A stretch of 64,000 bases of DNA from an uncultured Aquimarina sp. (GTDB taxonomy: Bacteria; Bacteroidota; Bacteroidia; Flavobacteriales; Flavobacteriaceae): NCBI RefSeq assembly GCF_947496855.1, contig NZ_CANMED010000008.1, positions 76,509 through 140,508 of the forward strand, written 5' to 3'. The position numbers and the translations under genes are program-made. The notes under the pieces were generated by a model that was given only the letters and a program-made list of their open reading frames with translations, ran no database searches and had not been told where the DNA came from. This document shows positions 7,693 through 58,234 of this stretch, one piece after another (position 1 is the first letter of the stretch; each line of letters starts with the position of its first letter).

Positions 7693-7694
7693 AA

Positions 7695-8420: not shown

Positions 8421-8422
8421 AA

Positions 8423-8590: not shown

Positions 8591-8592
8591 TA

Positions 8593-9482: not shown

Positions 9483-9501
9483 GATTTCTATGTTTTAAAC
9501 T

Positions 9502-9537
9502 CCTCTGCCTTTCAGGCATCTCCCTAAAAAAGGGAGA
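9502..9537. repeat. Twin hairpins in the sheath-tube spacer (TGCCT-TTC-AGGCA and TCTCCCT-AAAAA-AGGGAGA)
   Basis: Read directly at 9506..9518 and 9519..9537, about 24 nt upstream (transcript sense) of the tube ATG at 9482. Confidence 0.6.
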
Positions 9538-9649
9538 AGTATTTTTTTTTAAGTTACTTGTTTGGCAAAAGAGAGATGTTATTATTAATGATTTACTTTA
9601 TGGTTATTTTATTTACTAACTACTAATATCTAGCTACTAAAAATCTACT

Positions 9650-11590: not shown

Positions 11591-11605
11591 AATTTTAATT
11601 GTTTT

Positions 11606-12616
11606 TTAAATAAAAATTTCAGAATATGTTGTTGTTATATTTGTGTTTACGTCAGTAATTTGTTTTATAATGTTAACCGTAGGGTTAGGAAAAATGTATT
11701 TATCTATATCTGTGGGTAATGGACCAGAAAAATCGGCATCTGGATCAATTTCTATAAAACCATTTCTGGTTAAAGGTTTTACTGAAGAAGTTTCCAATTC
11801 GTTTTCATCCGATTTCTTAATATACTTCCAAATGGTTTTCCTGTTTTGGAAATGAAGTTTATATACTGGAGTGGGATCTAATAAGAAACTTTTAATATCA
11901 TTAGGATCTGTACTATCTATCTCTAGGACGTCCATATTATCATCACCAACCATTTGTAGTTCTATGATTCCTAATAATCCTCTACCTTGTTCTTTTTGGA
12001 TGTATTGATCTATAATTTTTTTTCCTTCGTCTGTAACCAGATCATCATTATCTAGTTCTGCAACAAGATCTAATCGTGTCGCTATTTCTGCTCTTATATT
12101 GTCTTGCTCCAAATCGAACCATAGCTGTCTTGTGCTTTCTTCTGTTAATAAAAAATCATCAGTAATGAGATCGTTTGAGGAACTTAGATGAATATATGAG
12201 TACGGATCTGCTTCAGTGGATGGTTGCCTATTAGAAAAATAATAAAGTCTATTATCAGTTTGTGTTAATTCAGTATAGTTATCAAATAAATGATCTTTTA
12301 TGTATACCAAAAAGGTAAGTTTTAGATCATTTTCTAAAAACCTATGCGATTTAAATTTATTATTTTCTTCAATCACACTACCTAATATTCTGAAACTACC
12401 CAGCCCCTTTCTTAAAACTAACTTATGATTTCTTAAGGTTGCCTGAGTTGCGTATGTTGGGATCACATTGATATAATCTAAAAAATTGTAGTTTTTTAGT
12501 TGTTCTTTTTTATCATCATCATTCATAGATATATAAGGAGACAATCCGTCATCCAGGAAATAAGAATGTAATAGCTCTATCTCAAACAATGTTTTATATA
12601 GTGTTCTAAATGCCAT
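11606..12616 (-). CDS. Hypothetical protein, eCIS-operon member of unknown role
   Basis: 336-aa ORF packed between the DUF4255 gene (1-nt gap) and the sheath gene (15-nt gap). I recognise no motif in it. Confidence 0.6.
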   Translation of the reverse strand: MAFRTLYKTLFEIELLHSYFLDDGLSPYISMNDDDKKEQLKNYNFLDYINVIPTYATQATLRNHKLVLRKGLGSFRILGSVIEENNKFKSHRFLENDLKLTFLVYIKDHLFDNYTELTQTDNRLYYFSNRQPSTEADPYSYIHLSSSNDLITDDFLLTEESTRQLWFDLEQDNIRAEIATRLDLVAELDNDDLVTDEGKKIIDQYIQKEQGRGLLGIIELQMVGDDNMDVLEIDSTDPNDIKSFLLDPTPVYKLHFQNRKTIWKYIKKSDENELETSSVKPLTRNGFIEIDPDADFSGPLPTDIDKYIFPNPTVNIIKQITDVNTNITTTYSEIFI

Positions 12617-21000: not shown

Positions 21001-21781
21001 CTGCATCTATTGATTTATACATTCCCAAATTAGTAGCCACCCAGAGAATATTAGAATTAGCTGGATGCATATACAATTCATTCATTGAAGATGGAGTATT
21101 ATTAGGATCTAATCCTGTCGGATTCCAAGTTTGTCCTCCATCTATTGATTTAAAAACTCCTGCACTTTGAGTATCATTTCCATCATCATCACCTGTAGCA
21201 ATATAAATAATGTCCGAATTTGAATAATCAACAGCTATACCTGAAACGCCTATCTGAGGTAGGTTATCTGTTAAAGGAGCCCAAGTACTTCCCGCATCAA
21301 CTGACTTCCATAGACCTCCAGCCGGAGTACCCACATACCAAGTACTTGTATCGTTAGGATCTACAACAATCGCATTAATTCTTGCCTGACCAGAAGACCA
21401 AGAACCTGTGTTTGTATGAGTAAAAGGACCTATTGCTTCCCAATTACTTAGATCTGTAGAGACCAATTTATTTTGTGTTTCATTTTTATGCTCCCAGGCA
21501 ATCCATTTATCCTTAGATGTTGGAAGATAACCTTCACCATCAACAACATCTTCCCAAATATACTCCCATCTCTTAAATGGTTTATATCCACTACCCTTTA
21601 CACTTGGATCACGAGTTTCCCAATATGTATTAAAAGCTTGTTGAATTTCTTGAAAAGTTGGTTTAAATTCCCCACCATTCTTACTTTGTTTAAGACTTTG
21701 CATCCATGGGGCATCCTGATTGTATTGTGCGTTAGTTATTCCACAGAAAAATAGCACAAAAAAGAGATAAAAATACTTCAT
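18011..21781 (-). CDS. Secreted BNR/Asp-box (sortilin/VPS10-like) repeat protein with T9SS C-terminal sorting domain
   Basis: 1256 aa with a signal peptide and many S-x-D-x-G-x-T-W/F boxes (SVDAGSTW, SIDGGQTW, SIDAGATW, STDGGINF, SIDGGVTF). The C-terminus VYPNPTKNKLYID...GAYFIIIENDQKRLVKKMVKE is a type A T9SS CTD. Confidence 0.8.
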   Translation of the reverse strand: MKYFYLFFVLFFCGITNAQYNQDAPWMQSLKQSKNGGEFKPTFQEIQQAFNTYWETRDPSVKGSGYKPFKRWEYIWEDVVDGEGYLPTSKDKWIAWEHKNETQNKLVSTDLSNWEAIGPFTHTNTGSWSSGQARINAIVVDPNDTSTWYVGTPAGGLWKSVDAGSTWAPLTDNLPQIGVSGIAVDYSNSDIIYIATGDDDGNDTQSAGVFKSIDGGQTWNPTGLDPNNTPSSMNELYMHPANSNILWVATNLGMYKSIDAGATWNVTLPGNIKDVKLKPGNPDVMYAVTPNEFYKSINGGDTFTMITNGVPIENGRIVIDVTPANNEFVYLLSVNTDESFKGVYRSEDSGDSFTVKNVFTDVIESRQAFYDLALGVSQTNAEEVFVGCLNVWKSDNGGTAFSKVNNWNVPQGPSYTHADIHMIRSFGGVIFVCSDGGIYSSTDGGINFTDHTAGIQASQFYKVAVSPNDPNKMVGGLQDNGGHAYDNGNGNWMNYYGADGMDTAIDPTNDDKYFGFIQNGGGLYKSITAGSSGSGSVDQPLGSNGNWITPLAIDTNGELYAGYNNLYRLNAFETGWIELANLGNPANQIEIAPSDNTLMYIAVGSILKKTNDSGTTVTDVFTFGGNIRGIAIHNTDPNIVWVTTSSSVQKSIDGGVTFNNISSNLPVTDNYFFLNDIVHHAGQAQDPIYVATSIGVYRSVTDGSWTPFFNNLPTTIVNDLEISVSDNSITAATYGRGIWRSSLPSCLTITAKQQFSVDNGTIEEGSLISLCTGQSITFQLDVQTGDSPTFSWSGPSDFSSTDSSITINDLSLNESGEYLVTINAASTCGAIDYSFSLDIEEALLPMVSDIDVCANDSANLKASGSADYKWYTAATGGTEIATGESYITPAIIAATTYYVSGVSAVIVSEQTSSPDVSTATDYDFSQGMIFNTNDDIVIESFMMSAMSAGDRTIQVADSAGNIVASTTVNIPLGESLVTVNLNVPKGNNNIISVSSDLVSIRRTPSGNGVSYPYTSPSNVVSIIGNTVNAFDFYYFFYDWNFTSKGGRCESIRTPINVNLATDNPDLSDGDTEYSIDGGSAVSFSDGETIEVIQDLDIELTIPASPFNASVVWTAPGGQTYNTDSISFNNIELNGDEDGDWTVEVIFGTNCGAAPQVISFVLDVKSTTLSVDDFDFDTIRVYPNPTKNKLYIDNTVDFLNPTITVFDIRGRKLNNPVDIQRITSKQVELNTSFLTSGAYFIIIENDQKRLVKKMVKE

Positions 21782-43024: not shown

Positions 43025-43089
43025 CGCAATGTAACAAGTTTATATCTATTGCGAACTTAGGAATAATAATTAAGATGAGTTTTTTATTT

Positions 43090-43440
43090 GTTATAAAGGC
43101 CATGTTCACCCATCGACTTCGCTAGGGTTCGGAATGAAACTGCAATTCGAAGACTGTACTTTGGCTGGCTCAACATGAGATGTAGCCGAAGGCCGATATG
43201 CCAAAGGTTCGAGAACACCCTGACAAGTTTTGTATACACTTTACCCTTTGGAATCATATAATGATAATGACCATACTTTAATACTACGCGAGGACTGAGG
43301 CTCTCTAAGTCCGTTAATTCAGAGTTCGAGGGCCTCACCCTTCGATAACTTGGATAGTACGGATTTAAGGAACATTTTCGCGCTATCATATCCGAGCGGT
43401 CGGGTTTCTCTCACAGCACACCTTCGAAGAGCTGGACTCT
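43090..43440 (-). ncRNA. GC-rich structured non-coding element (unclassified candidate ncRNA or foreign DNA relic); strand uncertain
   Basis: By eye, GC is well above the ~30% flanks. Local hairpins include GGACT..AGTCC, TCGAAGGG..CCCTCGA, CCAAAGG..CCTTTGG and CCGA-CCGC-TCGG. Long-range complementarity exists between CTTCGAAGG..CTGT near one end and ACAGTCTTCGAA near the other. The only ORF (43084..43389) has non-protein-like composition. Confidence 0.3.
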
Positions 43441-43980
43441 TTAAGTTGATTCATCTTTTAAAGAAACAAATAACCAACAATTATTTTCTTTCTTAAATTC
43501 AAACTCAACCCTTATACCATTATCTATCCCTAATTGATAATATATATAAGTGTCATTTTCTTTTTTCTCTATTTTTGCTCTAAATCTATCAATATCTCTG
43601 TTTGCAGCTTCACTATCGTTGCTTAAATTAAAAAATTGATAATCCTGTTGCTCTATATATTCTTCTTCAGGTGTTGTTGTGTCAGAACTATAAGCATCAA
43701 AATATGTCATTTTTAAAGGAAATTTAACTCTACTTTTTTGAAAAACACTATCCTTAGAAAACCTATTGAAAAAAGCTTCAAAATTTAATCCACAATTTTT
43801 TGGAACAATAGGATTATCTGAAATAGGTTCTTGCAGAGTATCTAAAACAGGTTCATTTGTTTTCTCCGCTTTAATATCTAAATCTTTACTGTTTGTTTCT
43901 TTTTTATCTACGCACCCTGTAGCAAAAGCTACTAAGACTATCAATAATGTTGTTTTAAATAAAGTATTCATTTTGCTCAA
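43441..43980 (-). CDS. Lipoprotein, candidate immunity protein for the upstream RHS M23 cargo
   Basis: 179 aa with lipobox LVAFATGCVDKK. It starts 8 nt after the RHS stop. The immunity role is inferred from position only. Confidence 0.5.
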   Translation of the reverse strand: MSKMNTLFKTTLLIVLVAFATGCVDKKETNSKDLDIKAEKTNEPVLDTLQEPISDNPIVPKNCGLNFEAFFNRFSKDSVFQKSRVKFPLKMTYFDAYSSDTTTPEEEYIEQQDYQFFNLSNDSEAANRDIDRFRAKIEKKENDTYIYYQLGIDNGIRVEFEFKKENNCWLFVSLKDEST

Positions 43981-43988
43981 ATTAAGTT

Positions 43989-46900
43989 TTAATCCCTAAA
44001 TATCAGAGGGAGAGGTTTTGGTGCAGGTGTAGGTGCTGGATTTGGTATAGTTCCACCACCAGGAACCGGTTGTGGTGTTGGCAAAGGCGTAATATCATTC
44101 GGTGTTATTGGACTTACTGTACTTGCCTTAGGTAAAGCCGGTCTAGAAACTTCAACTTTAGGTGTGTATGTAACACCTGGAAATTTATAAAATGCCCAAA
44201 AATCATTATCATTATCATTATCATTATTACTAATACTATAATAAGATTCTGGCCAAGGACCAGCAGATATCCATGTTTGAGGATCTACTACGTTACTTGG
44301 AGTTTTAGCTTTACCTTCTGTTGGATTATACCAAGTATTATTTTTTCCTGTTTCAACAAAAGGGGCTTGTATTATACCGTAATGTAAATGAACTTGATAT
44401 CCTCGTTCTTTTCCTCTACCTGAACCCCCAATAAGACCAATTGTTTGTCCTTCATCTATTTCATCACCTACTTCTACTAAAACAGAACTCATATGAAAAT
44501 ATCTAGTTTGAAATGAACCGTCTGGTGATTGCAAATATACATTTCTTCCAGAACCACTTAAAGTAGCTTTTACAGATACTACTCGACCAGAGTGTGTCGC
44601 TAATACAGGTGCTCCAAAATCAGTTGCGCCACCTCCATCAAAATTTATATCTAAACCTCTATGATTTTTACTACATCCTGAACAATTTCTTGGACCAAAA
44701 TATGAGTCTATTCGTCTCCTCCAATTCTTAAACATTTCAGGAACTGGCCAAGGAATATTTCCTCCGCTATCACTAAAATAAATAGGATTATTAAATCCAA
44801 AATTATAAGGAGATTGAGATCTCATAAATTCAGCAAGTGGATCGATATTGAACCATCTTCCTAATTCTGGATTATAATTTCTTTCTCCAAAATCATAAGT
44901 AGTTAAACCAAGTTCGTTCTGTTCTTCTTTCCCACCAAAACCGTATTTATGTTCCGATACAATTAGATCATTGTATCCTTTATGTTGTAGTCCAAATGGA
45001 TAATAATTCTTCTCTTGTAGTATTTCGTGAGCATAATCAGCATCTCCATCAGCATCTGCATTATTTCTCAGCACATCAATTTTTCCATCTTTATCCTTAT
45101 CAGAAAATGAGAGTCTTATATTTCCCAGATGGTCTTTATATTGGTATACGTAATCAAACTCACCTTCTCCATTAGGTTCTATATACCCTTCTGCATGGTT
45201 AAAGAACTTAAGTTGTCCGTTTTCATACACATGGTTACCAGCGTATTCTACTATTAAAGAACTTCCTCCAGAGACAACTTTCTTTTGTTTCGCTCCAGTG
45301 GCATCGTAAATATAAGTAATATTTCCTGTTCCTTCACTATTAGAGATCGCAACAGTGTTAGGTAAGTTTAAATGATTATAACTAATACTAGATATTCCTT
45401 TATTATGATCCACAGTCATATTACCGTTAACATCATATTGATAATCATCTCCTGCAACTGTGGTATTCTTGGTAAATCCAAAAGGCATTGTTACCTCATC
45501 GGTAACTTTTAGTAATCTGTTCCCTGCATCATATTCATAGGCAAGATGATCCATCATGCCAAAATCACCAGATCTATTTCGATCAGGATTGGTAACAATC
45601 GCTCCAGTTCTTTGTAAGGTTTCGATATTTCCGTTTTTGTCATAGGATACATTACTTAAGTTATACCTACCATCACTACTCGTTCCGGCAAGAATTCTAT
45701 TCAATGCATCATACTGGTATCCATAAGCCCGTTTGGTATTATCATTAGCAGTTTTCCAACTAGTTTCACTAATGTTTCCATTGAATAATGGATCAGCACC
45801 TAAGTTTTCGCTAGTGGTATTGTAATTAATTACAATACCAAATAAATCACCATTATCGGTAGTACCCTCATTAATTTCTTTTAACCAACCTCTCACATTA
45901 TATGCGTAATCTACCTTTTGTAGTCCCCCTTCGGCTCCGCTCAAGGATCCTTGGGCACTGATCGACGCAGAAGTGCCTCCAACTGCTTTAGACTCCAATT
46001 GCCCTAATGCATCATAGGTGTTATATACGATTCGTTCTTCTGCTTGATTATTAATCGTTTGATTTTGATCTAATAATCTCCCCATATGATCGTAAGTAAA
46101 GGTATCAATGGTCACTATCGCAGCATTGCTGCCTTTGGTATGGGATGTTCGGGTTTTTAAAACCTTGCCCACAAAATCCAATTTATTTAAAATCCAATCT
46201 TCAGTACCGAGATAATCATTTTTTATATGCGTTTCCCAAGCTCTTCCCTTATTATCATAATAAGTAGCTGTTGTAATCCATTGATCAGTTCCTAACACTC
46301 TAACTTGGGATACCGTTGGTAAGCCTTTTACTTCAGCGGTTGCTGTCATACCTTCCCAGGTTCCGGAGCCATTAACTGGATTAAAAGTTACTAGATTTCC
46401 AACTTCATAATCATCATAGTAATTGATGGTTAATATTTCATCAAAGCTATTAGGATAAACACTCCCTTTATTATAATATATGGTTGTACCAATGTATATA
46501 TTGGGTACTGTTGTTCTATTTACAAATTGAGAAGTTCTTTCATCAGCTTCTATTTGTATTTGACTTCTGGTTTTGGTATTATTTTTATCTTTTCCAGTAT
46601 AAATTACTCTACCAAATGCATCATACGTGGTAAATAACCATTCATTTTTTGTTTTCTGATTTGCATCCTGAGTCATTATAGGTTGATCCAATTTGTTATA
46701 TATAATATACTCCCATCCTTTTCCTGGTATTTTCTTTTCGATCAATCGGTTTCTGTAATCATATGTATATTGGTAGCACAGTTCGGCAAGTTCTTCTGGA
46801 GATACTCCATCTGTAGCACTTAATGTTACTTTTGGAGGAATGACATAGGTAAGATTCCCAAAATCATCGTATACATAATAGGTATCGTGTGCTCCGCCTG

Positions 46901-47852
46901 CGGCACCTCCCCCAGAGGGAGAGGAGTTAAAAGTACGCTTTAGAATGACTCTGCCAGATTTATCAGTGAATTCCTGTGTAGTGTGATTATCACCATCACC
47001 CGTCGTCCAATTCTCATCTTTGGTAATGTTTACAAAGAGTTCATTATCTGGATAATCCCCCACTTTTACCAAGCTAGGCGCTTCGGTATTGCCATCGGTA
47101 AAGTTTACTCTAAAATAGACCACATCATCTGCGGCATTATTAGCCCTTCTATCTAATTTTATAGTATGATCATCTCCTGTAGTTTTTGCAATCCAGTCTA
47201 ATCCCGGTGCAGCCTGTTTTAAAGATCTACTTAATGGGGATTTCTCAAAAATAGTCTCTGAATAAGCATTGACATCAGCTTCTGCCATTCCGATAAAATC
47301 ATTAGGATATTTTGTTTTATAATAGCTATTAATATCTGTAATAACATCAACGGTATTATAACTTCCTATAACTTCATTTTGTCTCTCGAAAGGCAAATAC
47401 TGTTTTGCTTGTCTTCCATAAGTATCATATTCCATATAAGTTACAATATCCTTTTTATCAGAAGAGGCTTTAATTCCTATTTGTTGTGTAGCACGGCCTA
47501 ATCCATCAAAATAGGTAATGCTTTCGATCACATCGCTATTATTGCTAACTTCAGAAAAACTGGTCTTCTCCTTTTGATACACTCGTGTGAATACATAATT
47601 CTCGTCAGTGCTTAATAATGGATTTACATAAGGATCTCCAGAAATCGTTGCAGAAAACACAGTTCCTGGTTGTATCCAGGTGGTTGGTTTAATGATAATT
47701 TTTTGACCTGCGCTTACATTAAGTAATGCCGGATCGCTAGATGCATTAATGGTTTCGTTTTCTATAATTACTGTATCTGCTCTTTGGGCAGTTACCACTA
47801 TGCTTACTAAAACTAGCAAGACTGTAGCAATTTGTGTTACAATATTTTTCAT
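43989..47852 (-). CDS. DUF6443-type RHS/YD-repeat protein with C-terminal M23 (LytM-like) peptidase domain
   Basis: 1287 aa with a signal peptide and the N-terminal block STDENYVFTRVYQ...ITYFDGLGR. It has many YD repeats. The RHS core end is YNPELGRWFNIDPLAEFMRSQSPYNFGFNNPIYFSDSGG. It continues with HRGLDI (HxxxD) and HLHYG (HxH) M23 motifs and ends in a Pro-rich tail. Confidence 0.9.
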   Translation of the reverse strand: MKNIVTQIATVLLVLVSIVVTAQRADTVIIENETINASSDPALLNVSAGQKIIIKPTTWIQPGTVFSATISGDPYVNPLLSTDENYVFTRVYQKEKTSFSEVSNNSDVIESITYFDGLGRATQQIGIKASSDKKDIVTYMEYDTYGRQAKQYLPFERQNEVIGSYNTVDVITDINSYYKTKYPNDFIGMAEADVNAYSETIFEKSPLSRSLKQAAPGLDWIAKTTGDDHTIKLDRRANNAADDVVYFRVNFTDGNTEAPSLVKVGDYPDNELFVNITKDENWTTGDGDNHTTQEFTDKSGRVILKRTFNSSPSGGGAAGGAHDTYYVYDDFGNLTYVIPPKVTLSATDGVSPEELAELCYQYTYDYRNRLIEKKIPGKGWEYIIYNKLDQPIMTQDANQKTKNEWLFTTYDAFGRVIYTGKDKNNTKTRSQIQIEADERTSQFVNRTTVPNIYIGTTIYYNKGSVYPNSFDEILTINYYDDYEVGNLVTFNPVNGSGTWEGMTATAEVKGLPTVSQVRVLGTDQWITTATYYDNKGRAWETHIKNDYLGTEDWILNKLDFVGKVLKTRTSHTKGSNAAIVTIDTFTYDHMGRLLDQNQTINNQAEERIVYNTYDALGQLESKAVGGTSASISAQGSLSGAEGGLQKVDYAYNVRGWLKEINEGTTDNGDLFGIVINYNTTSENLGADPLFNGNISETSWKTANDNTKRAYGYQYDALNRILAGTSSDGRYNLSNVSYDKNGNIETLQRTGAIVTNPDRNRSGDFGMMDHLAYEYDAGNRLLKVTDEVTMPFGFTKNTTVAGDDYQYDVNGNMTVDHNKGISSISYNHLNLPNTVAISNSEGTGNITYIYDATGAKQKKVVSGGSSLIVEYAGNHVYENGQLKFFNHAEGYIEPNGEGEFDYVYQYKDHLGNIRLSFSDKDKDGKIDVLRNNADADGDADYAHEILQEKNYYPFGLQHKGYNDLIVSEHKYGFGGKEEQNELGLTTYDFGERNYNPELGRWFNIDPLAEFMRSQSPYNFGFNNPIYFSDSGGNIPWPVPEMFKNWRRRIDSYFGPRNCSGCSKNHRGLDINFDGGGATDFGAPVLATHSGRVVSVKATLSGSGRNVYLQSPDGSFQTRYFHMSSVLVEVGDEIDEGQTIGLIGGSGRGKERGYQVHLHYGIIQAPFVETGKNNTWYNPTEGKAKTPSNVVDPQTWISAGPWPESYYSISNNDNDNDNDFWAFYKFPGVTYTPKVEVSRPALPKASTVSPITPNDITPLPTPQPVPGGGTIPNPAPTPAPKPLPLIFRD

Positions 47853-47858
47853 CTATTA

Positions 47859-50800
47859 CTAGTTTTTGTAGTTATACTCGTTTTCTGATATCAAATTACC
47901 ATACTGATCTTTTACCGTTGATAATCGATTAAAACCATCATATTCATAATACATCGTATCTCCTCTGGGATCTGTTATACTAGTCACACCAATCTGTGGA
48001 TTATAGGTATAACTAATTATTTCTGCATTGGCAAAGAATGTGTGGGATCTTAAGTCCTCGAACTTAGATCGCATAGTAATCTCTTCAGAAGCAGTATCCT
48101 CTGCATTAGAGATTGTTTTGATCTGATCAATCAAATCGATTACCTCTGTAGGCATTCCTGTATAGGTAGCGTTGTCAATTTTAGCAATCGGATATCTATC
48201 GTTGTATCCCCAAATAAATATAACTGGACTTCCTAAGGTCTGTACAACTTCTAATGGATGTCCTAGATTATCATAATCTACATATCGCATACGCTCTTCC
48301 AGCGTTGCATTTCCTTTACTGGTATACACAAATTCTGGAGATACGTGTTTTTCGGTACCCCATAATTTATAATCTGTTCTTTGTTTAGCCAGTAGGATGT
48401 TTTCAGTTCCTTGCTTGGTGTACTGCTCTACTTGTAAAGGCATTCCAATACGATGGGTATCTATCATTACATCAATAGCTTTGTTGGCATTAAGAGGTAA
48501 AGTACCGAGCGCTGCTCTATCCTGAGGATAATACATTTTAGAGATCCCTATTTCCCCATTGTTTTTGGTGGTTTGCGTACGCGTCATTTGTTTATGAGTA
48601 TCGTTATCATAGAAGTATTCTGTTTTTTGCTCTATGAGCTGATCCTCAAAAAATTGTTTTTCTGTTTTTGCCTCTAATCGTGTCCATACAGGGGTTAAGC
48701 GGTACTTATTAGCAAAATACTTGGTATATGGCCCTAATTCTCCTCCTCCAAAACAACCGCCGACTATAGGGTCAGCAAGTGAGACAGAAATGGTATACGT
48801 ACCATTTTCGTATATTTTTTTCTTACAGGCCTGGTGTGCAACTGCCTCTGGCATCAAAAAGACTCCGTTGTGTGGCATGGTAGTACTCAGGGTTTGTTGT
48901 GAGTACAGCTGTGAGCTTTGCTGCGCAATTTTTCTTTGATCGTTATAATGGATAATGGCTCTCAGTCTTCCGTTTAGATGGTATCTGGGGAAATAAGGGC
49001 GGTTTGCCACTGCTACGCCATCATCCTCATTATAAAAACTATAGACAGTATGTCCTTGATATTGATCATTTTTGAATCGTATTTCAGAAACATTCGTATA
49101 GGCGATATTGTATTTTGCTTTTGGAGCTAAATTATTGCTATAAAACTTATACAAATTCACATCAGGTACATTGACACCGTCACGCACAAGACCACTATGT
49201 ATTTCTACATCAGAAAAGAATAGTTTTTGATGCACCACTCCGGAAGAAGCATAGTTACCTTCTATGATATCAGGAGTAATTGCTCCATTTTCAGGCAACG
49301 TATTATAATAATAATACTTAGTCAATACATCAGTAGCATTTTCTGAAGGTTTGTCTTCTGTTTTAACCAATCGTAAACCTCCTACCATATTGTTTCTGCT
49401 TATCTCCTGTTCTACTAACAAGTCATACTGAACATTCAAAGCTGTATTAGCATTTCCATTGACTAGTAAAATGCGATAATCTCCTTCTTCTAATTGTAAA
49501 ATAAAATCACTGTCAGGAGTCGTACTGAAGTATACAATCTTTGGGTTGGTAGCAGGATTGCTGGTCATAATATCGCAATAAGTTAGTGGTGCTTCTCCAT
49601 CATCACAAATCGTATAGGTATCACCCGATACGCTTGTAGAACATCCATTAGGTTGTAACCCAAGATCAGGACAAGGACGTGTCTCACACTGCCCTGTTCC
49701 TATTCGAGATTTATACACACAAACAAATGTTACTCCATTATCAGCTAATGGATTGCCGGGATCATAATTATTGAATGTGGCATCAAAAGCAATTGCTTTA
49801 TTTGCATTTAAAGCATCAATGGTAAACTCCCCATTGGCAATATTCTGAAGATTGTTTAGATATGAAACATCATCAACATTAGGACAATCGTTTAGATCAT
49901 TGGTACTGGCTATGGGGTTGTCACTTCCTCCCTGAACCGCAGTGGTGTATCTTTGTAGATTCGTATTGGTTTGTTCTTCTAAAGGACCACTATGTCCATT
50001 AAAAAAGAATTCCGTGCTTCCTCCAGTAGGATAGGTAATTTTTTGTAGCGTTCCATTGATGGCAAATTCCGGTTTAGATGTACGGTCAGACCCTGGGAAG
50101 TCATAATCTAATCGGCTCAATCCATATTGTTGGTTAAAAAGGAACCTGTTCCCCACCACATTGGTGATATGTGCTCCTCCACCATTATAATATCCCCAAA
50201 GATCCATATAATGAGAGCTTATGTGAGGAAGTTGTGTCGGGTTAAAATAATCAAAACTATGCGTTTTCTCTTTAGGAGTTGTAGGTGATGTATTAATAGT
50301 TCCTTGATTCTGAAACACCTCAATGTCACGAATTGCATCTAGTTTTAGACGTTTATCACCTGCTGGATATATCCCAGAACCGGATTCTGACACGAAATAT
50401 GAATAATCAAATTCGAAGGCTTTTACAGTTTGCCCTAAAGTGTTGTAAGCATTGATACCGGTAATCGCAGACTGCCCAAGCAAATCTTCTCGCTGCAGAC
50501 TACTTCCAAAATCTACTGCCAAGGTACCATTATGAAAAATAGCTGTTGGGTTAAATTGTTTGATCTTATAGATTGTTTGCTTATGTTGTTCTACAATTTC
50601 TTGTGTAAAAACTGAAGAATTCACGTTTTGATAAAATTGAACAATATGGTCTAAAGGCAACCGCTGATTCTCTGCATAGTAGGCTCCATTACCGTAGTAG
50701 TATACGATTGTATCTTCTTTATCAGCAGTTTCTATGTTGGTAACATACCAACTGGAGATATATTCTGCGGTATACTCATTCTGTTGGGTGCTATAGGATG

Positions 50801-51545
50801 TATGGGTAAATTCTGCTTTAGCAAACTCATAGCGTGTTCCCTGGGTATCCGTAATGATCCAATTGGTGATCTGATCCCCTAACAAGGTATAATCGATTTT
50901 GACTTCAGGGTTATCAATACAAAAAATTTGATATTTCCCATTTTCTATCACATCGTAGTTGATCCCAATGGTTCCCGATAGTCCATTAATAGAAAAACTA
51001 AAGGTATCTGCCTGGATATCGATATTGTTCATACTATAATTGGTTAATAAAGCATCAGCGGCATCCATCGCTTCTACGGTAGAAAAGGCTGTCATGTGCG
51101 CATTATTATATGCCGCATCAAGACCTGCTCGAGTGCCTGGATCGGTAATTTTAGCATAGGTTCCATCCGCTTGATCAGGAAGTCCATGTACCTGACGAGA
51201 AACTACCCCACCATAGTTTAGGTTCCACCCTAAACCAACCTTAGTAGCGAGTTGATTTACCTTAATCCCAGAAGCATCATAGGTCATACTAATCGGCATA
51301 CTGATACTATTCCCTTTGATCTCACAAATCGGAATCGAAATATTAGGAGTACCTGTATATTGGTTTAATGGAACATTCCCATATTTAATAAAAGCAGCTG
51401 CTTCTGGAGAGTTAGGAATCGTAACTGCTCTGGAAAGCTCTGCTGTATAATCAAATGCAGTAGTGCCTCCACCGTCATCGCCAGTCTGTGCATATCCCAA
51501 ACTTGTGATCAAAAAAAGTGTGAGAAATAATGAAATGTTTTTCAT
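47859..51545 (-). CDS. Large secreted protein, SpvB/TcB-like N-terminal region with C-terminal YD repeats (partner of the RHS protein)
   Basis: 1228 aa with a signal peptide. NQYTGTPNISIPICEI...PISMTYDASG...VGLGWNLNYGGVVSRQVHGLPD resembles the SpvB/TcB N-terminal pattern (from memory). The C-terminus is DPRGDTMYYEYDGFNRLSTVKDQYGNLISENEY. There is a 6-nt gap to the RHS gene. Confidence 0.65.
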   Translation of the reverse strand: MKNISLFLTLFLITSLGYAQTGDDGGGTTAFDYTAELSRAVTIPNSPEAAAFIKYGNVPLNQYTGTPNISIPICEIKGNSISMPISMTYDASGIKVNQLATKVGLGWNLNYGGVVSRQVHGLPDQADGTYAKITDPGTRAGLDAAYNNAHMTAFSTVEAMDAADALLTNYSMNNIDIQADTFSFSINGLSGTIGINYDVIENGKYQIFCIDNPEVKIDYTLLGDQITNWIITDTQGTRYEFAKAEFTHTSYSTQQNEYTAEYISSWYVTNIETADKEDTIVYYYGNGAYYAENQRLPLDHIVQFYQNVNSSVFTQEIVEQHKQTIYKIKQFNPTAIFHNGTLAVDFGSSLQREDLLGQSAITGINAYNTLGQTVKAFEFDYSYFVSESGSGIYPAGDKRLKLDAIRDIEVFQNQGTINTSPTTPKEKTHSFDYFNPTQLPHISSHYMDLWGYYNGGGAHITNVVGNRFLFNQQYGLSRLDYDFPGSDRTSKPEFAINGTLQKITYPTGGSTEFFFNGHSGPLEEQTNTNLQRYTTAVQGGSDNPIASTNDLNDCPNVDDVSYLNNLQNIANGEFTIDALNANKAIAFDATFNNYDPGNPLADNGVTFVCVYKSRIGTGQCETRPCPDLGLQPNGCSTSVSGDTYTICDDGEAPLTYCDIMTSNPATNPKIVYFSTTPDSDFILQLEEGDYRILLVNGNANTALNVQYDLLVEQEISRNNMVGGLRLVKTEDKPSENATDVLTKYYYYNTLPENGAITPDIIEGNYASSGVVHQKLFFSDVEIHSGLVRDGVNVPDVNLYKFYSNNLAPKAKYNIAYTNVSEIRFKNDQYQGHTVYSFYNEDDGVAVANRPYFPRYHLNGRLRAIIHYNDQRKIAQQSSQLYSQQTLSTTMPHNGVFLMPEAVAHQACKKKIYENGTYTISVSLADPIVGGCFGGGELGPYTKYFANKYRLTPVWTRLEAKTEKQFFEDQLIEQKTEYFYDNDTHKQMTRTQTTKNNGEIGISKMYYPQDRAALGTLPLNANKAIDVMIDTHRIGMPLQVEQYTKQGTENILLAKQRTDYKLWGTEKHVSPEFVYTSKGNATLEERMRYVDYDNLGHPLEVVQTLGSPVIFIWGYNDRYPIAKIDNATYTGMPTEVIDLIDQIKTISNAEDTASEEITMRSKFEDLRSHTFFANAEIISYTYNPQIGVTSITDPRGDTMYYEYDGFNRLSTVKDQYGNLISENEYNYKN

Positions 51546-53273: not shown

Positions 53274-54710
53274 CTAAACTACTTCTAAAATCATCTTCTC
53301 AAAACTATCTTTACCAGCGTCACATAATGCACATTGATAGGTTTCTGGTAAATCTACAAACTCAGTTCCTGCAGGAATACCTGATACAAGATCGCCTATA
53401 GATGGATCATATATCGTTTGGCAATCCTTACATTGAAATACTTCGATCTCCGTTTTCTCATTTTTAGCAGGAATTCCTGCAAAACTTTCTTCGTCTCCTT
53501 CTCCCAAATTCTGGAAATAAGCTTTTGTCAATTCTAATAATATTGCGGGCAAATCCATTTGGTCTATATCTTGCGCATATACAATATAATTTCGTGTATT
53601 AGGGTCGAATTTCTGAGCATACAGAACATTATAGGTGGGTCTTATAACAAAATCTTTTATAGCCTCTGGTGTTTTGTTTTCTTCTATAACAACCGACGTG
53701 AAATATCTTTTTTGATTGCGATTGATACTTATGGTAAACGTCATACCATAGGTACTTATATCATTTTGATCAAAATTCATGACCAAGAATTTTTTCAGAT
53801 CCAGTGCCTTCTGATTAGCTACCGGCAAATGCCAATTTAACTCTAATGCAGAATGACGTACATTAATCCCTAACTGCCCCAAGAGTTTTTCCAGAGGTAA
53901 TTTACATTCCTTCGGAATTCCTTTTATTATAAAAGATTTCCAAGGGGTTAAACACATTTTACCTATTCGATATTCTATACAAAACTCACAAAGTGCCTTA
54001 AGAAATTTTAGATCATATTGATTATTTCTCCAATACAGTCCTAACCAATATTGATTGATTCCCATTTTATTCATTCCTTCATAATACGGAAATGGCTTAA
54101 AACTAACACTTAGTGGCTTTTCTACAACTCGATTATTAGTATCAATACTCTCATTGAGAAACTGAAAAAGCTCATCAACATTATTTACTTTTTGATATAT
54201 TTTTTCGATTTCCTGAGCTACTTTTGCGATATCCCAAGTAAATATTAAAACCGGGTAAAACACTTCTTCCCAGCCTGGTAATTTTAAGAATAAGTACCAA
54301 TAATCTTCATTTGCAGAGGCAATAAAATTAAGATCTCCCGAGAATAATGACACCATTTGCTGTTGGGGATCTGATATATTAATTTTCAGCTTAGGTTTAT
54401 ACCTAAATTGCTCAAGAATGTATAAATATGTTGTACCACGCAACCAAACAGTAGAATTAAAAATATCTATAGAAACGTAAGAGCAACTTATATTCTGTTC
54501 CGTCTCCGGAGCAAAAAAGTCAGTATTGAATGATTCATGTTCAGTGACCAAATTCCCCTTAGCATCTTTAGATGGAAATATGATATCCTGTCTGGATCCA
54601 AAATGGAAAGTTTCTAACCCTAGATCCTCTGCATACCTAATGATTCGTTGCAATTCACTAGGTGATAAAATCCCCCCTTTGATATTTACTCTATGCATAA
54701 ATTCTTCCAT
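53274..54710 (-). CDS. Nitrite/sulfite-reductase-like protein fused to a C-terminal rubredoxin domain
   Basis: 478 aa. The N-terminus MHRVNIKGGILSPSELQRIIRYAEDLGLETFHFGSRQDIIF looks like a NiR/SiR ferredoxin-like half domain. The C-terminus FQCKDCQTIYDP...YQCALCDAGKDSF is rubredoxin (two CxxC pairs). There is a 2-nt gap from nasA. Confidence 0.7.
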   Translation of the reverse strand: MEEFMHRVNIKGGILSPSELQRIIRYAEDLGLETFHFGSRQDIIFPSKDAKGNLVTEHESFNTDFFAPETEQNISCSYVSIDIFNSTVWLRGTTYLYILEQFRYKPKLKINISDPQQQMVSLFSGDLNFIASANEDYWYLFLKLPGWEEVFYPVLIFTWDIAKVAQEIEKIYQKVNNVDELFQFLNESIDTNNRVVEKPLSVSFKPFPYYEGMNKMGINQYWLGLYWRNNQYDLKFLKALCEFCIEYRIGKMCLTPWKSFIIKGIPKECKLPLEKLLGQLGINVRHSALELNWHLPVANQKALDLKKFLVMNFDQNDISTYGMTFTISINRNQKRYFTSVVIEENKTPEAIKDFVIRPTYNVLYAQKFDPNTRNYIVYAQDIDQMDLPAILLELTKAYFQNLGEGDEESFAGIPAKNEKTEIEVFQCKDCQTIYDPSIGDLVSGIPAGTEFVDLPETYQCALCDAGKDSFEKMILEVV

Positions 54711-54712
54711 AC

Positions 54713-57700
54713 CTAAGCTAATTGCAATACTTTATTAAATACTTCTTTTACTTCGGGCTTACAACTACCACAACCTAATCCTGCTCCTGTTTTAACACAC
54801 AACTCTGAGAAATCTTCACAGCCAGATTTTATCGCTTCTTCTAGATTACCCTCACCCACCTGACTGCAAGAACAAATCAGTTTACCAAGCACAGGTTCAT
54901 CGGGTTGTGATGACCTAAGTAATTCTTCTCTTTTTTCTGATAATTCTATTTTCTCCTCGATCAACCTTTTAAAATCTGCAAACTCGCTCTTATCACCCAT
55001 CAAAATTGCTCCTACCAACCAATCGTTTTTAACAATACATCTCTTATAAAATCTCTTACCTACGTCCATGAAAACAACTTCTTCATAGGTGGGATCATCT
55101 TTTGGCATATCAATATTACCAATACTGCATAAATCCAAATCCTCAAATTTCAGGATATTCATAAATACAGAACCTCTATAAATCGCACTAAAATCTCCTA
55201 AAAGATACTTCGCTACTACATCAGCTTGTTGTTCTGCTGCAGCTGTAATTCCGAATAAATTACCTTCAAATTCAGCAATCTCTCCTACTGCAAAAATATC
55301 TGGATCACTAGATTGTAAATATTGATTTACTACAATTCCTCGACGACAATTGACACTTTCAGCTTTGGCTAAATCAATATTAGGAATGGTACCAATAGAA
55401 TAAACAACGGCATTACAGCTAAATGATTTTCCTGATTTCAGGTTTACTAACAATGATCCAGAATCCTGATTAAATACTGTATCCACTTCATTATCAAAAT
55501 GGATTTGTATTCCTTTTTCGCGTACATCCTCTGCTAACAAACGACTGGCTACAATGTCTAATTGACGTTCCATCAATCGATTTCCTCGCTGTATAATGGT
55601 AATTTTCACTTCCTTTTTACGCAGTGCTGCTGCCAGTTCCAGACCTAATAATCCACCTCCTACAATAGTTACATGTTGTTTATTTTCGGGCAAACCGGTA
55701 TCATCGAGATATGTCTTTAGTTTATCTGCATCACTACGGTCCCTCATGGTAAATCTTCCTGGCAAATGAATCGGCACCTCTTTTGGTACAAAAGCTCGAC
55801 TACCTGTAGCCATTAGCACCACATCATACTGATGTTTTTTTCCTTTACTATCGATAAGATACTTTTCTTCTCTATTAATCTTAGCAATTGGATTGCTTGT
55901 AGACAAGGTTACATTAAGAGATTCCATGCTGCCTTCTCGCATCTTTTGTAATTGCTCCCAAGTAAGTTCTTCACTCACATATTCTGGCAGTAAAACACGG
56001 TTATAAAAAGGATACGGTTCTTTAGAAAACACAGTAATCTCATCTTCCATATTATGCTCTCTATACGTTTGTATAAAACGATATGCAGCAGTACCTGCAC
56101 CAATGATACAAATCTTCTGTTTTTCTTTTACAAATTTTGAAACCTGTACTGCAGAAAACTTAAAATCAGGTTCTTTGGAAACGGGATCAACAATACTAGT
56201 TGTTAGATTATTAGCTCTTCCATAATCATTACCTAACACTTTACCCCAATGCATTGGCAGGAATACTACTCCCTTACGGATAGTATTGCTAACCTTTACC
56301 TTTACCTGTACTTTTCCTCGCTTACTTTCTACCACAGCAATATCACCATCTTTCATCTTTCTGAGAAAAGCATCTACTTGGTTCATTTCTAAGAAAGGAT
56401 GTGGAATATGCGTTAATAACCTATTTACCTTTCCCGTTTTGGTTCTGGTATGCCATTGATCACGAACTCTACCAGTCGTTAAAATTAATGGATGCCTCTC
56501 TGTTAATAATTCTGAAGTTGGTTTGGTAAACCTTGGAACTATAAACTTTGCGTTACCAGTATCTGTATAAAAACGTTTATCCTCAAATAAGCGTGCAGTT
56601 CCCGAATGATTGCTTTCTGGTACTGGCCACTGAAAACTACCTTCATTTTTTAATCGTTCATAATTTAAACCAGCAATATCAATATTTGTATTTTTAGTCA
56701 ATCGACAATGTTCTTTGTACACCTCTTCTACAGATGAGTAATCAAATCCCCTGTATCCCATTCTTTGTGCAAATTTCCAAAGTATTTCTGAATCAGATAA
56801 TGCTTCTCCAGGAGGATCAACCACCTTATTCAAATACGTAATACGTCTTTCGCTATTAGTCATTGTACCTTCTTTTTCTGCCCAACCAGCAGCAGGCAAA
56901 ACTAAATCGGCATACTCTAAGGTCTCGGAACGATGAGAAATATCCTGGACCACAACAAACTTGGCATTTTGTAAAGCTTTTTCTACCTTATTAGCATTAG
57001 GGAGACTTACTAAAGGATTTGTACAAATAATCCATACTGCTTTTAGTTTTCCACTTTCTAGAGCCTCAAACATCTCTGTAGCTGTCAATCCTGGTTTCTC
57101 AGAGATTTCTTTACCTCCCCAAAAATTAGCGACTTCTGTTCTATGTTCTTTATTACTTAAATCTTTATGGGCTGCCAGTAAGTTAGCCATTCCTCCTACT
57201 TCTCTTCCTCCCATCGCATTAGGTTGTCCTGTCAATGAAAAGGGACCAGATCCAGGTTTTCCGATATGCCCCGTAAGTAAGGATAGATTTAAAAGCGCAT
57301 TATTTTTGTTTACTCCTATAGAACTTTGGTTTAACCCCATCGCCCAAAGCGTTATAAATCCTTTAGCATTACTTATATATGAAGCGGCTTTCTTAATATC
57401 AGCAACAGTTATTCCACATACTTTTGCAGCTTCTGTTAATGAAGTGGATTGCAAAGACTCTTTTAACGATTCATAATTATCTGTGTGGTTTGCTATAAAA
57501 CTCTTATCGATTTTTCTTCGATCAATTAGTCGCTTAGCAATTGCATTAAACAATACCACATCTGTGCCTGGTATAATTTGTAAATGTAAATCTGCAATAT
57601 CACAGGATTGCGTTTTTCTTGGATCAACTACAATGATTTTGGTATCTGGATTTTGTTCTTTATGTGCTTCAATTCTTCTATATAAAATAGGGTGACACCA

Positions 57701-58234
57701 TGCAGGATTAGCTCCCGCAATCATAAAGCAATCTGCTAATTCTATATCATCATACGCAATCGGCACGCTATCTTCTCCTAACGCTTGTTTGTATCCCACA
57801 ACTGCAGAACTCATACATAATCTAGAGTTGGTATCTACATTATTAGTACCAATAAATCCTTTGGTCAGTTTGTTTACCAGGTAATACTCTTCAGTAAGAC
57901 ATTGTCCTGAGACATAAAACCCGACACTATCCGGTCCATATTTATCAATAATGGTATTAAAAACTGCCGTTGCACGGTCAAAAGCCTGATCCCAAGATAT
58001 CCGTTGACGTTCATGTCCTTTACTCCACCTCATCTCTGGGTATAAAACCCTATCACTCTTATCCTGAACTACATGGTGTAAATTCATCCCTTTAGAACAT
58101 AACATTCCTTTATTCACAGGATGATCAGGATCTCCCTCTACAGTAATCACTCCTTTAGCATCTTTTTTAGCTATTATTCCACAACCAACACCACAATATG
58201 AACATGTAGTTTTATAAGATTTAAATGCCGTCAT
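54713..58234 (-). CDS. nasA: Assimilatory nitrate reductase (molybdopterin oxidoreductase) fused to an NAD(P)H/FAD oxidoreductase and a BFD-like [2Fe-2S] module
   Basis: 1173 aa. The N-terminus has a 4Fe-4S motif, CSYCGVGCG. A Rossmann motif ICIIGAGTAAY lies at about residue 710, with a second one, VTIVGGGLLGLE. The C-terminal Cys cluster is ICSCSQVG...GCGSCKPEV. Confidence 0.9.
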   Translation of the reverse strand: MTAFKSYKTTCSYCGVGCGIIAKKDAKGVITVEGDPDHPVNKGMLCSKGMNLHHVVQDKSDRVLYPEMRWSKGHERQRISWDQAFDRATAVFNTIIDKYGPDSVGFYVSGQCLTEEYYLVNKLTKGFIGTNNVDTNSRLCMSSAVVGYKQALGEDSVPIAYDDIELADCFMIAGANPAWCHPILYRRIEAHKEQNPDTKIIVVDPRKTQSCDIADLHLQIIPGTDVVLFNAIAKRLIDRRKIDKSFIANHTDNYESLKESLQSTSLTEAAKVCGITVADIKKAASYISNAKGFITLWAMGLNQSSIGVNKNNALLNLSLLTGHIGKPGSGPFSLTGQPNAMGGREVGGMANLLAAHKDLSNKEHRTEVANFWGGKEISEKPGLTATEMFEALESGKLKAVWIICTNPLVSLPNANKVEKALQNAKFVVVQDISHRSETLEYADLVLPAAGWAEKEGTMTNSERRITYLNKVVDPPGEALSDSEILWKFAQRMGYRGFDYSSVEEVYKEHCRLTKNTNIDIAGLNYERLKNEGSFQWPVPESNHSGTARLFEDKRFYTDTGNAKFIVPRFTKPTSELLTERHPLILTTGRVRDQWHTRTKTGKVNRLLTHIPHPFLEMNQVDAFLRKMKDGDIAVVESKRGKVQVKVKVSNTIRKGVVFLPMHWGKVLGNDYGRANNLTTSIVDPVSKEPDFKFSAVQVSKFVKEKQKICIIGAGTAAYRFIQTYREHNMEDEITVFSKEPYPFYNRVLLPEYVSEELTWEQLQKMREGSMESLNVTLSTSNPIAKINREEKYLIDSKGKKHQYDVVLMATGSRAFVPKEVPIHLPGRFTMRDRSDADKLKTYLDDTGLPENKQHVTIVGGGLLGLELAAALRKKEVKITIIQRGNRLMERQLDIVASRLLAEDVREKGIQIHFDNEVDTVFNQDSGSLLVNLKSGKSFSCNAVVYSIGTIPNIDLAKAESVNCRRGIVVNQYLQSSDPDIFAVGEIAEFEGNLFGITAAAEQQADVVAKYLLGDFSAIYRGSVFMNILKFEDLDLCSIGNIDMPKDDPTYEEVVFMDVGKRFYKRCIVKNDWLVGAILMGDKSEFADFKRLIEEKIELSEKREELLRSSQPDEPVLGKLICSCSQVGEGNLEEAIKSGCEDFSELCVKTGAGLGCGSCKPEVKEVFNKVLQLA

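Follow-up and report, generated by a model that had tools for sequence, protein, structure and literature searches.

A 64,000-nucleotide stretch of the genome of an uncultured Aquimarina sp. (contig NZ_CANMED010000008.1; the whole stretch is called the window below) carries, on its minus strand, what is probably an antibacterial polymorphic-toxin operon in which a two-part RHS shell, resembling the TcB-TcC (BC) cocoon of toxin complex (Tc) toxins, would enclose a cell-wall hydrolase in a TcA-free setting. Three open reading frames (ORFs) make up the locus: giant1 (47859-51545, 1,228 residues), giant2 (43989-47852, 1,287 residues) and a lipoprotein gene (43441-43980, 179 residues when read from a TTG start). 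A preliminary description of this DNA had proposed a Tc-toxin-like BC module with a peptidoglycan-hydrolase cargo and a lipoprotein immunity candidate; its ORFs, their coordinates and strand and the 6-nucleotide gap between the two giants were borne out, and its interpretation is supported by the analysis given here. The gap between giant2 and the lipoprotein gene is 8 nucleotides with the TTG start and 17 nucleotides with an ATG start at 43971, and the latter appears the more plausible start of the two. Translation from the ATG gives MNTLFKTTLLIVLVAFATGC, with the lipoprotein signal MNTLFKTTLLIVLVAFATG-C and the lipobox cysteine at residue 20. A consensus scan found no terminator-like hairpin in the short gaps between the three genes and several weak ones inside both giant genes, their number being not clearly above chance; the promoter and terminator scan, which does not model Bacteroidota promoters, returned counts as chance predicts. 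Both giant proteins are 100% identical to database entries from 'uncultured Aquimarina sp.' (Flavobacteriaceae), the entry for giant2 being the NCBI 'DUF6443 domain-containing protein [uncultured Aquimarina sp.]'.

As the preliminary description had it, giant2 (43989-47852, on the minus strand like every operon feature located below) is a DUF6443-RHS shell protein with the layout of a polymorphic toxin. A Sec signal peptide (residues 1-23, 47784-47852, predicted from the sequence to be cleaved at VTA|Q) precedes DUF6443 (Pfam PF20041; residues 89-230, 47163-47588, E 1.7e-38), an RHS/YD-repeat shell recognised by Pfam RHS_repeat (residues 231-949, 45006-47162), an RHS-associated core predicted to be an aspartyl autoprotease (residues 950-1032, 44757-45005; TIGR03696 at 950-1031 with 49.1 bits against a cut-off of 32.5) and a C-terminal toxin (residues 1033-1287, 43992-44756) made up of an M23 metallopeptidase domain (residues 1063-1162) and a Pro-rich tail (residues ~1225-1287). 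The assignment of the cargo to the M23/LytM-type metallopeptidases on the strength of its HRGLD and HLH motifs also held: Pfam Peptidase_M23 matched residues 1063-1162 with 59.8 bits against a cut-off of 28.7, and the M23 residues are all present, namely H1064-x3-D1068 (HRGLD at 1064), H1120 (YFHM at 1118) and H1155-x-H1157 (HLH at 1155). Moreover, the C-terminus matched ShyA, LytM, lysostaphin and other M23 enzymes among PDB sequences (E 6e-8 to 1e-5). The domain has the HxxxD and HxH zinc ligands of secreted M23 bacteriolysins such as lysostaphin, zoocin A, LytM and ShyA and, like them, is expected to act as a peptidoglycan cross-link endopeptidase. It differs from them in forming the predicted cleavable C-terminus of an RHS shell protein, with a Pro-rich tail, and in having an NTF2-like lipoprotein as partner where the bacteriolysins have a cell-wall-targeting domain and Fem-type resistance.

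The core of giant2 could be compared directly with that of a Tc toxin. In a BLASTP comparison with SepC, the TcC protein of the Serratia entomophila plasmid pADAP, the two cores aligned (E 1e-5), with giant2 R991, D1004 and D1028 falling on the conserved Arg/Asp/Asp of SepC and the giant2 DSGG motif at 1028 on the SepC DSNG. We take these three residues to be the autoprotease residues of YenC2 and TccC3, in which cleavage presumably occurs a few residues past the last Asp, and therefore predict that giant2 is cut just after DSGGN, near residue 1032, to release a toxin of 255 residues. A tblastn search of plasmids with the giant2 core returned Bacteroidota DUF6443 proteins and two Streptomyces RHS/SpvB proteins only, and no proteobacterial TcC. 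With its RHS shell, a core whose catalytic residues align with those of SepC and a variable C-terminal toxin, giant2 is supported as a TcC-like protein at the level of sequence. Its AlphaFold2 model had a predicted template modelling score (pTM) of 0.46, and in Foldseek this model matched RHS cages of all kinds (E 1e-20 to 1e-13), the best E-values being those of Rhs proteins of type VI secretion systems (T6SS).

Giant1 (47859-51545) appears to be a nearly all-beta shell protein of an undescribed family with a TcB-like fold. Its N-terminal region had been described as resembling SpvB/TcB, and this stands as regards a TcB-like predicted fold and a co-linear motif, whereas the sequence similarity did not reach significance; we base the TcB likeness on the predicted fold because the sequence resemblance is weak. 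Structure prediction, one of the checks that the preliminary description had proposed, gave an AlphaFold2 model of residues 29-1228, built from a 60-sequence alignment, that was almost all-beta, with a predicted local distance difference test (pLDDT) value of 85.2 and a pTM of 0.77. When this model was compared with the PDB by Foldseek, the top eight matches were TcB chains (E 1.5e-17 to 1.9e-16; query-normalised TM-scores of 0.35-0.37), from TcdB2 (alone, in the holotoxin or as TcdB2-TccC3 fusion constructs), TcdB1 and YenB. T6SS Rhs cages, teneurins and SGS1 gave TM-scores of 0.07-0.15, and the modelled giant1 thus looks like a large open TcB shell segment, not a small closed Rhs cage.

The proposed profile check against TcB gave a narrower answer. 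Hhalign with a 26-sequence TcB profile aligned only a ~60-residue N-terminal motif of giant1, at the equivalent position (E 0.005, probability 7%), and with SepB of pADAP it aligned this block alone, to SepB residues 33-88 (E 0.027, probability 2%). The motif (residues ~56-123, 51177-51380; YTGTPNISIP...GLGWNL...GLPD, found by hhalign, Pfam and a TcB hidden Markov model) belongs to a conserved block, YTGTPNISIP...P-ISL-YDASG...GLGWNL...R...GLPD, that is co-linear with the start of the SpvB/TcaC domain. The TcB hidden Markov model matched 99 of 120 giant1 family members, 94 of the matched stretches lying at the position of the SpvB-like motif and all of them scoring below 10 bits. Pfam SpvB (PF03534) did not match giant1 itself; it matched 2 of 33 homologues, the best of them (P0051) over profile positions 3-98 with 21.8 bits, just short of the cut-off of 22. 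Apart from a terminal sub-threshold RHS repeat, giant1 had no Pfam family match, it had no NCBIfam match, and phmmer found no PDB sequence at E<=10. In a search of the PDB with a 33-sequence giant1 profile, the last ~60 positions matched the RHS repeats of solved Rhs cages (E ~1e-6). These positions fall in the C-terminal YD/RHS repeats (residues ~1175-1228, 47862-48023), which form the junction with giant2 in fused homologues and include RHS_repeat at residues 1187-1213 (17.7 bits, sub-threshold), in agreement with the claim that giant1 ends in YD repeats.

Homologue comparison divides the remainder of giant1 into two parts. The conserved N-domain (residues 29-520, 49986-51461) defines the family, and many homologues have only this domain, roughly 40% of the protein, in common. 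The Cys-containing middle region (residues ~530-720, 49386-49958) is variable, being poorly conserved in two family alignments and unaligned over residues 577-719 in the BLAST comparison with the related locus L036; some homologues carry PKD/Ig domains, and one might speculate that the middle region is a specificity or receptor module. A phmmer search with the N-domain against 1.84 billion representatives returned 16,413 at E<=1e-3 and 12,762 at E<=1e-10, the domain thus occurring in ~12,700 clusters of 50% identity.

Importantly, the two giants travel together. A GTDB-wide scan with the giant1 profile yielded 80 related loci (L-numbers below), nearly all from Bacteroidota, among them Aquimarina, Dokdonia, Flagellimonas, Maribacter, Psychroserpens, Roseivirga, Ekhidna, Algoriphagus and a Bacteroidales metagenome-assembled genome (MAG). 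Where at least 3 kb of sequence was available downstream of giant1 (54 loci), a giant2-like gene with DUF6443, RHS repeats and core followed on the same strand in 52, usually with a tiny gap or an overlap, which answers, from the giant1 side, the earlier question of whether the 1,228-residue partner accompanies DUF6443-RHS genes. In three loci (L010, L036 and L041) the homologues of giant1 and giant2 form a single ORF containing no stop codons or Ns, 2,422 residues long in L036, and the exhaustive N-domain search found more proteins of ~2,400 residues. The fusion joins giant1 residue ~1226 to giant2 residue ~82-109, in DUF6443; the fused homologues drop the giant2 signal peptide and the first ~60 mature residues and keep one signal peptide. 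This end-to-start order, the same as in TcB-TcC fusions, indicates that the last YD strands of giant1 adjoin the start of DUF6443 in the assembled state. The mature giants together would provide a shell of ~2,200 residues, compared with ~2,100 for SepB (1,428) plus the SepC shell (~679), and we infer that they co-assemble into one cocoon.

The same evidence bears on another reading, which we regard as rather unlikely, in which giant2 is a self-sufficient Rhs cage with DUF6443 as its N-terminal plug and giant1 is a separate accessory, such as a surface anchor, a receptor-binding or translocation partner or an export carrier. The DUF6443-to-core span of giant2, at ~950 residues, is near that of the ~1,000-residue T6SS Rhs cages that give its best Foldseek E-values, the variable middle of giant1 and the PKD/Ig domains of some homologues would fit a binding module, and small extra genes sometimes lie between the two giants. 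However, the prediction for giant1 is a TcB-like segment of an RHS shell and not an adhesin fold, and the three fusions join its terminal YD repeat to DUF6443, as a continuous beta-spiral predicts and as would be odd for a detachable accessory. Tc cargoes sit in the larger BC cocoon while single-chain Rhs cages hold small toxins, and the 255-residue cargo of giant2 is nearer in size to the former. As for the small genes, a lipocalin-like gene of ~170 residues (Pfam Lipocalin_4) or a gene of ~140 residues with no family was found between the giants in a few loci (L015:13417-13929, L066, L070 and L076; L035:12178-12621, L046, L051 and L069) and could encode an optional accessory or chaperone.

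A two-part shell of this kind invites comparison with Tc BC pairs (TcdB2-TccC3, PDB 4O9X; YenB-YenC2, PDB 4IGL; SepB/SepC of pADAP). The likenesses are the adjacent B-to-C gene order with occasional fusion, the TcB-like predicted fold and SpvB-type N-terminal motif of giant1, the RHS repeats, R/D/D autoprotease residues and hypervariable C-terminal toxin of giant2, and the similar total shell length. There are also differences. No TcA-like or TcA-sized gene was seen in the window, in accordance with the preliminary description, when most of its largest ORFs (>=440 residues) were scanned (those scanned include a baseplate J protein, a Sortilin protein with a type IX secretion system (T9SS) C-terminal domain, a nitrate reductase and M16 and M13 proteins), and clustering of all ORFs of the 80 related loci revealed no recurrent TcA-size family among the conserved neighbours. 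The FG-GAP/VCBS (PF13517) and TcdB_toxin_midN/midC (PF12256/PF12255) families of the TcB beta-propeller matched none of 33 giant1 family members even at E<=1, hhalign of the giant1 family with TcB gave no alignment over the propeller region, and giant1 has no D-x-D/N-x-D/N-G Ca-type motif; in contrast, among the 120 TcB homologues listed, all have SpvB and both TcdB_mid domains and nearly all have PF13517. Giant1 also differs from TcB in having no significant sequence homology to it. Tc subunits lack signal peptides and leave the cell by way of a lysis cassette, whereas the two giants start with Sec signal peptides; on pADAP, holin and lysozyme genes stand beside (before) sepA, with a DUF2514 gene between sepB and sepC, while the operon in the window is flanked by neither a holin nor an endolysin gene. 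Giant2, unlike TcC, begins with DUF6443 and has a shell ~270 residues longer, and its cargo appears antibacterial and is accompanied by a candidate immunity gene, whereas Tc cargo is anti-eukaryotic. Since the locus departs from Tc toxins in three defining features, the TcA partner, the propeller gate and cytoplasmic assembly, it should not be filed as one.

That both giants carry Sec signal peptides had been proposed, and the assignment stands. The N-termini, judged by eye, are signal-peptide-like and end in small-x-Ala|Gln: in giant1, residues 1-19 (51489-51545) read MKNISLFLTLFLITSLGYA|QTGDD with predicted cleavage at GYA|Q. Gln at +1 of signal peptidase I sites is a feature of Bacteroidota, and Q20 of giant1 is invariant in 33 homologues, the equivalent Gln of giant2 being nearly invariant in the alignment of its family. 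Sec signal peptides on both giants and on the fusions argue against machines that are loaded in the cytoplasm, such as T6SS or an extracellular contractile injection system (eCIS). This matters for the view that a contractile injection system carries the pair as its cargo, whether that system is encoded by the eCIS-type cluster of the window (1.8-12.6 kb) or is a T6SS encoded elsewhere. The view has some appeal: Rhs toxins are typical T6SS cargo, many of them were among the giant1 Foldseek matches, and an eCIS is, as earlier described, found ~30 kb off, in the form of a phage-tail-like cluster that includes baseplate J, a sheath and a VgrG-like spike. However, neither giant has a PAAR, VgrG or other T6SS-targeting domain (Pfam, NCBIfam), ~30 kb of unrelated genes separate the cluster from the operon, and the recurrent neighbour clusters of the 80 loci, of which a secretin cluster is the annotated one, showed no recognisable sheath, VgrG or baseplate family. 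T6SS genes were likewise found neither in the window, as had been stated, nor among those neighbour clusters. Given the Sec signal peptides, the lack of targeting domains and the lack of neighbour linkage, we rejected this view as highly improbable; the Sec signal peptides of the two giants make it very unlikely that the eCIS 30 kb away is involved. The eCIS-type cluster itself is real, with no apparent link to the RHS operon, and comprises, on the minus strand at 1841-12616, a baseplate J-like gene (1841-5083), a VgrG/gpV-like spike gene (5947-7692), two ORFs of ~147 residues (8593-9482), a sheath gene (9650-11590) and a 336-residue ORF (11606-12616) with no Pfam match.

How such a cocoon would be exported had been left as a question in the preliminary description, and there is now a concrete lead from gene neighbourhood. 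Approximately 14 of the 80 related loci are adjoined by a compact pilin/secretin operon resembling parts of type II secretion systems (T2SS) and type IV pili (T4P), usually immediately and divergently upstream of giant1 (L004:3035-9256; also L019, L025, L029, L040, L047, L056, L060 and L066-L068). In L004 it encodes a prepilin-type pilin (TIGR02532, above cut-off), a protein with a weak prepilin peptidase match (Peptidase_A24, 23 bits against 26.5), a GspE/PilB ATPase (T2SSE, E 1e-128), a secretin (E 1e-38), a 172-residue protein that is weakly GspM-like (E 9e-5) and a 403-residue protein with no assignment. No GspF/PilC and no minor pilins are found among these six genes, which is unusual for either a T2SS or a T4P, and from sequence the two cannot be told apart as the identity of the operon. 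The linkage was also examined in reverse, by searching with a secretin profile, which gave 80 metagenome loci (L085-L164). Of these, 36 extended 4 kb or more beyond the pilin gene on its upstream side; 29 of the 36 had a divergent gene with the giant1 N-domain, three more had only a giant2-like RHS gene, and four had neither. One machine that serves several toxin loci per genome would be expected to give just such an asymmetry, ~1 in 5 as counted from the toxins and ~4 in 5 as counted from the secretin.

These counts argue against a further reading, according to which the giants are secreted by T9SS or anchored at the surface, while the secretin/pilin cluster encodes an ordinary pilus or competence system that adjoins them for other reasons, or else a pilus for cell contact. 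In Flavobacteriia, large Sec-dependent proteins usually take the T9SS route, which has also been proposed for TANFOR, another polymorphic toxin class of Bacteroidota (PMC7073777), and both the uncertain identity of the secretin cluster and the possibly excessive size of the cocoon for a secretin would suit such a reading. Yet neither giant has a T9SS C-terminal domain of type A (Por_Secre_tail/TIGR04183) or type B (TIGR04131) at E<=0.01 (Pfam, NCBIfam), while a 1,256-residue protein encoded nearby has one, the C-terminus of giant2 is a variable toxin that is predicted to be cleaved off, and the presence of a giant1 gene beside 29 of 36 secretin clusters, in several genera, is not explained by chance. 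On these grounds the T9SS substrate reading was rejected, and we consider it improbable. The 1,256-residue protein (18011-21781, minus strand), with Sortilin-Vps10 repeats, Ig_7 and a clear T9SS C-terminal sorting domain, indicates that the organism uses T9SS and that the scan is able to detect the tail that the giants lack.

The toxin end of the operon varies independently of its shell. Compared with the window, L001 is 93% identical in giant1, 98% in DUF6443, 86% in the RHS region and 59% in the core, and its toxin has no match. Dozens of Aquimarina giant2 paralogues carry differing C-terminal Pfam domains, including M23, Amidase_3, Tlde1, CHAP/NlpC, Toxin-JAB1, Ntox21 and a ribonuclease, and none of the 80 related loci conserves the toxin region or the lipoprotein of the window. 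The lipoprotein (43441-43971 from the ATG start, lipobox ATGC, Cys20) matches Pfam DUF4348 (E 1e-7), whose relatives of known structure (PDB 4mjf and 3sbu) are NTF2-like and have no function assigned. The A. aggregata locus L081 shares 55% identity with the window in the shell and 66% in the toxin (over 255 residues, the tail among them), and the gene that follows encodes a DUF4348 lipoprotein 53% identical to that of the window. L084 has an M23 domain of another subtype (25% identity over 86 residues) followed by a gene for an unrelated 211-residue lipoprotein; both loci have a giant1 homologue upstream. It is thus with the toxin, and not with the shell, that the lipoprotein varies, as expected of an immunity protein. 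The gene had been thought well placed to encode periplasmic immunity, and its co-variation with toxin subtype makes the DUF4348 lipoprotein a candidate immunity protein for this M23 subtype. In L081, three consecutive genes of ~350 residues each (L081:1299-4562), with no confident Pfam match, precede the giant1 homologue on the same strand; they were not seen in the window and lie outside the families common to at least four of the 80 loci. Orphan RHS-core-plus-toxin cassettes, as in classical Rhs loci, follow the main giant2 in L016, L026, L036, L053, L075 and L079, and none is present in the window. Bins assigned outside Bacteroidota also contain the system, in an Alteromonas MAG (L043) and a 'Candidatus Paceibacterota' MAG (L071/L075), mis-binned contigs being a more probable cause than true occurrence.

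Considered as Rhs toxins in general, the giants have what would be expected of a polymorphic toxin: repeats, core, variable C-terminus and an adjacent, co-varying putative immunity gene. With the single-chain Rhs toxins (RhsA, Tse5, RhsP and Tre23-Rhs of T6SS; WapA of Gram-positive bacteria) they share the RHS cage, the autoproteolysis motif, a swappable toxin with a downstream immunity gene, the orphan cassettes of some related loci and an apparently antibacterial role. They differ from these in having no PAAR, VgrG or prePAAR, in being Sec-dependent, in needing, or at least always travelling with, a second shell-like protein of 1,200 residues, and in being linked to a secretin cluster, not to T6SS. 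Zhang et al. 2012 (PMC3482391) described a 'TcdB/TcaC' class with signal peptide, SpvB, beta-propeller and RHS in many phyla including Bacteroidetes, and SpvB-headed, Sec-exported RHS toxins are thus already known in principle. That class has SpvB and an integrin-like beta-propeller in one polypeptide, whereas the system described here is propeller-less and is divided between two genes joined at DUF6443; moreover, the export-pathway table of that paper gives TcdB as the sole associated component of the class and no secretin or T2SS machinery. In the literature we found no description of a propeller-less split architecture joined at DUF6443, of the giant1 family at its size or of its linkage to a dedicated secretin/pilin cluster.

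From these observations we propose how the TcA-free, two-part toxin might work. The two giants and the lipoprotein would be made from one operon and all exported by Sec, the giants through signal peptidase I sites before Gln and the lipoprotein through its lipobox. In the periplasm, the C-terminal YD strands of giant1 would continue into the DUF6443/RHS strands of giant2 and close one shell of ~2,200 residues, in which the RHS core (R991, D1004, D1028) would cut past residue ~1032 and leave the 255-residue M23 endopeptidase sequestered. A wall hydrolase must pass through the producer's own periplasm, which provides a clear rationale for an encapsulating shell, and the shell would also shield the producer's own wall during transit. 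The particle or its halves might then cross the outer membrane through a dedicated T2SS/T4P-like machine composed of pilin, prepilin peptidase, GspE/PilB ATPase, secretin and GspM-like protein, which would be encoded elsewhere in this genome and which many relatives have next to their homologous locus. Once at a competitor cell, the toxin would be released and would cut peptidoglycan cross-links, while the periplasmic DUF4348 lipoprotein would neutralise toxin reaching the periplasm of the producer or a sibling. Autoproteolysis and encapsulation of the toxin are predictions, and the export route, target recognition and release step are put forward conditionally.

Several points weigh against this proposal. 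Binding of giant1 to giant2 is argued from gene pairing, fusions and predicted fold, and the sequence homology between giant1 and TcB is suggestive, not significant; the 33-sequence giant1 profile did not recover TcB in its search of the PDB. By sequence the TcB beta-propeller, the gate that docks with TcA, is absent from giant1, which leaves the closing and opening of the giant1 end unexplained. The AlphaFold2 and Foldseek results for giant2 do not discriminate an open TcC-like shell from a complete cage, and its shell of ~950 residues, the length of self-contained T6SS Rhs cages, might close alone. On the export side, there is no GspF/PilC platform gene among the six genes of the secretin operon, and none of the secretin-cluster genes occurs in this 64-kb window, linking the locus of this genome to the cluster by homology alone. 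A fully assembled particle of BC size may also be too wide for a secretin channel; the two halves might leave one by one, or the role of the filament might lie in contact and not in export. Finally, the proposal does not account for the passage of the wall enzyme, or of the nucleases of the paralogues, across the outer membrane of the target, nor for delivery of the nuclease cargoes into the target cytoplasm.

Known RHS shells fall into three delivery settings, those of Tc toxins (with TcA), T6SS effectors and teneurins. The operon described here, as a member of a very large Bacteroidota family, would place a TcB/TcC-like split shell in a fourth setting that is Sec-dependent, free of TcA and T6SS, directed at bacterial targets and linked to a secretin/pilin cluster. 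As a tentative generalisation, and a more doubtful one than our reading of the operon itself, we suggest a widespread Bacteroidota delivery system in which a Sec-exported, two-part RHS cocoon lacking both gate and TcA is exported or presented by its own secretin machine. If this is true, it would add a polymorphic-toxin export route in a phylum that dominates marine particles and guts, a new one for Rhs toxins, and would represent a way of turning a BC-type capsule on bacteria independently of TcA. Thousands of unannotated proteins of 1,100-1,300 residues would then be accounted for as well, DUF6443 would gain a role as the B-to-C junction, and protein-delivery engineering would have a simple TcA-free BC capsule at its disposal.

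The surroundings of the operon are of a different nature. Upstream of it lie genes for nitrate/nitrite assimilation that are unrelated to it: a 1,173-residue fusion (54713-58234, minus strand) of an assimilatory nitrate reductase, a NasC-like molybdopterin enzyme, with a NirB-like flavoprotein part, and a 478-residue protein (53274-54710, minus strand) with a nitrite/sulfite reductase ferredoxin-like half domain and a C-terminal rubredoxin. Both of these domain fusions, nitrate reductase/NirB and nitrite reductase/rubredoxin, are unusual, and they too are unrelated to the toxin operon. Downstream, the stretch that follows the lipoprotein gene (43060-43440) has a GC content of 43% compared with ~31-36% locally and holds a mechanical ORF of 101 residues with no family; Rfam (gathering thresholds on the whole window, E<=1 on the GC-richer stretch) and ARAGORN found nothing in it. 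Just past the operon, at 43371-43407 (minus strand), lies a 37-nucleotide motif, AAACCCGAyCGCTCGGATATGATAGCGCGGAAATG..., that by blastn recurs downstream of equivalent Aquimarina toxin loci (three copies in L001, and also in L003 and L004); it looks like a repetitive extragenic palindromic (REP)-type element and is probably a mobile-element footprint rather than a component of the toxin system. An ORF of ~184 residues for an IS200-like Y1 transposase (Y1_Tnp, E 1e-11) is present downstream of the toxin and immunity genes in 13 of the 80 loci, including L001:18483-19037, with no copy in the window. In L001, copies of the 37-nucleotide motif flank this transposase ORF, which suggests that a pair of REP elements and a REP-associated tyrosine transposase (RAYT) is associated with these toxin loci.

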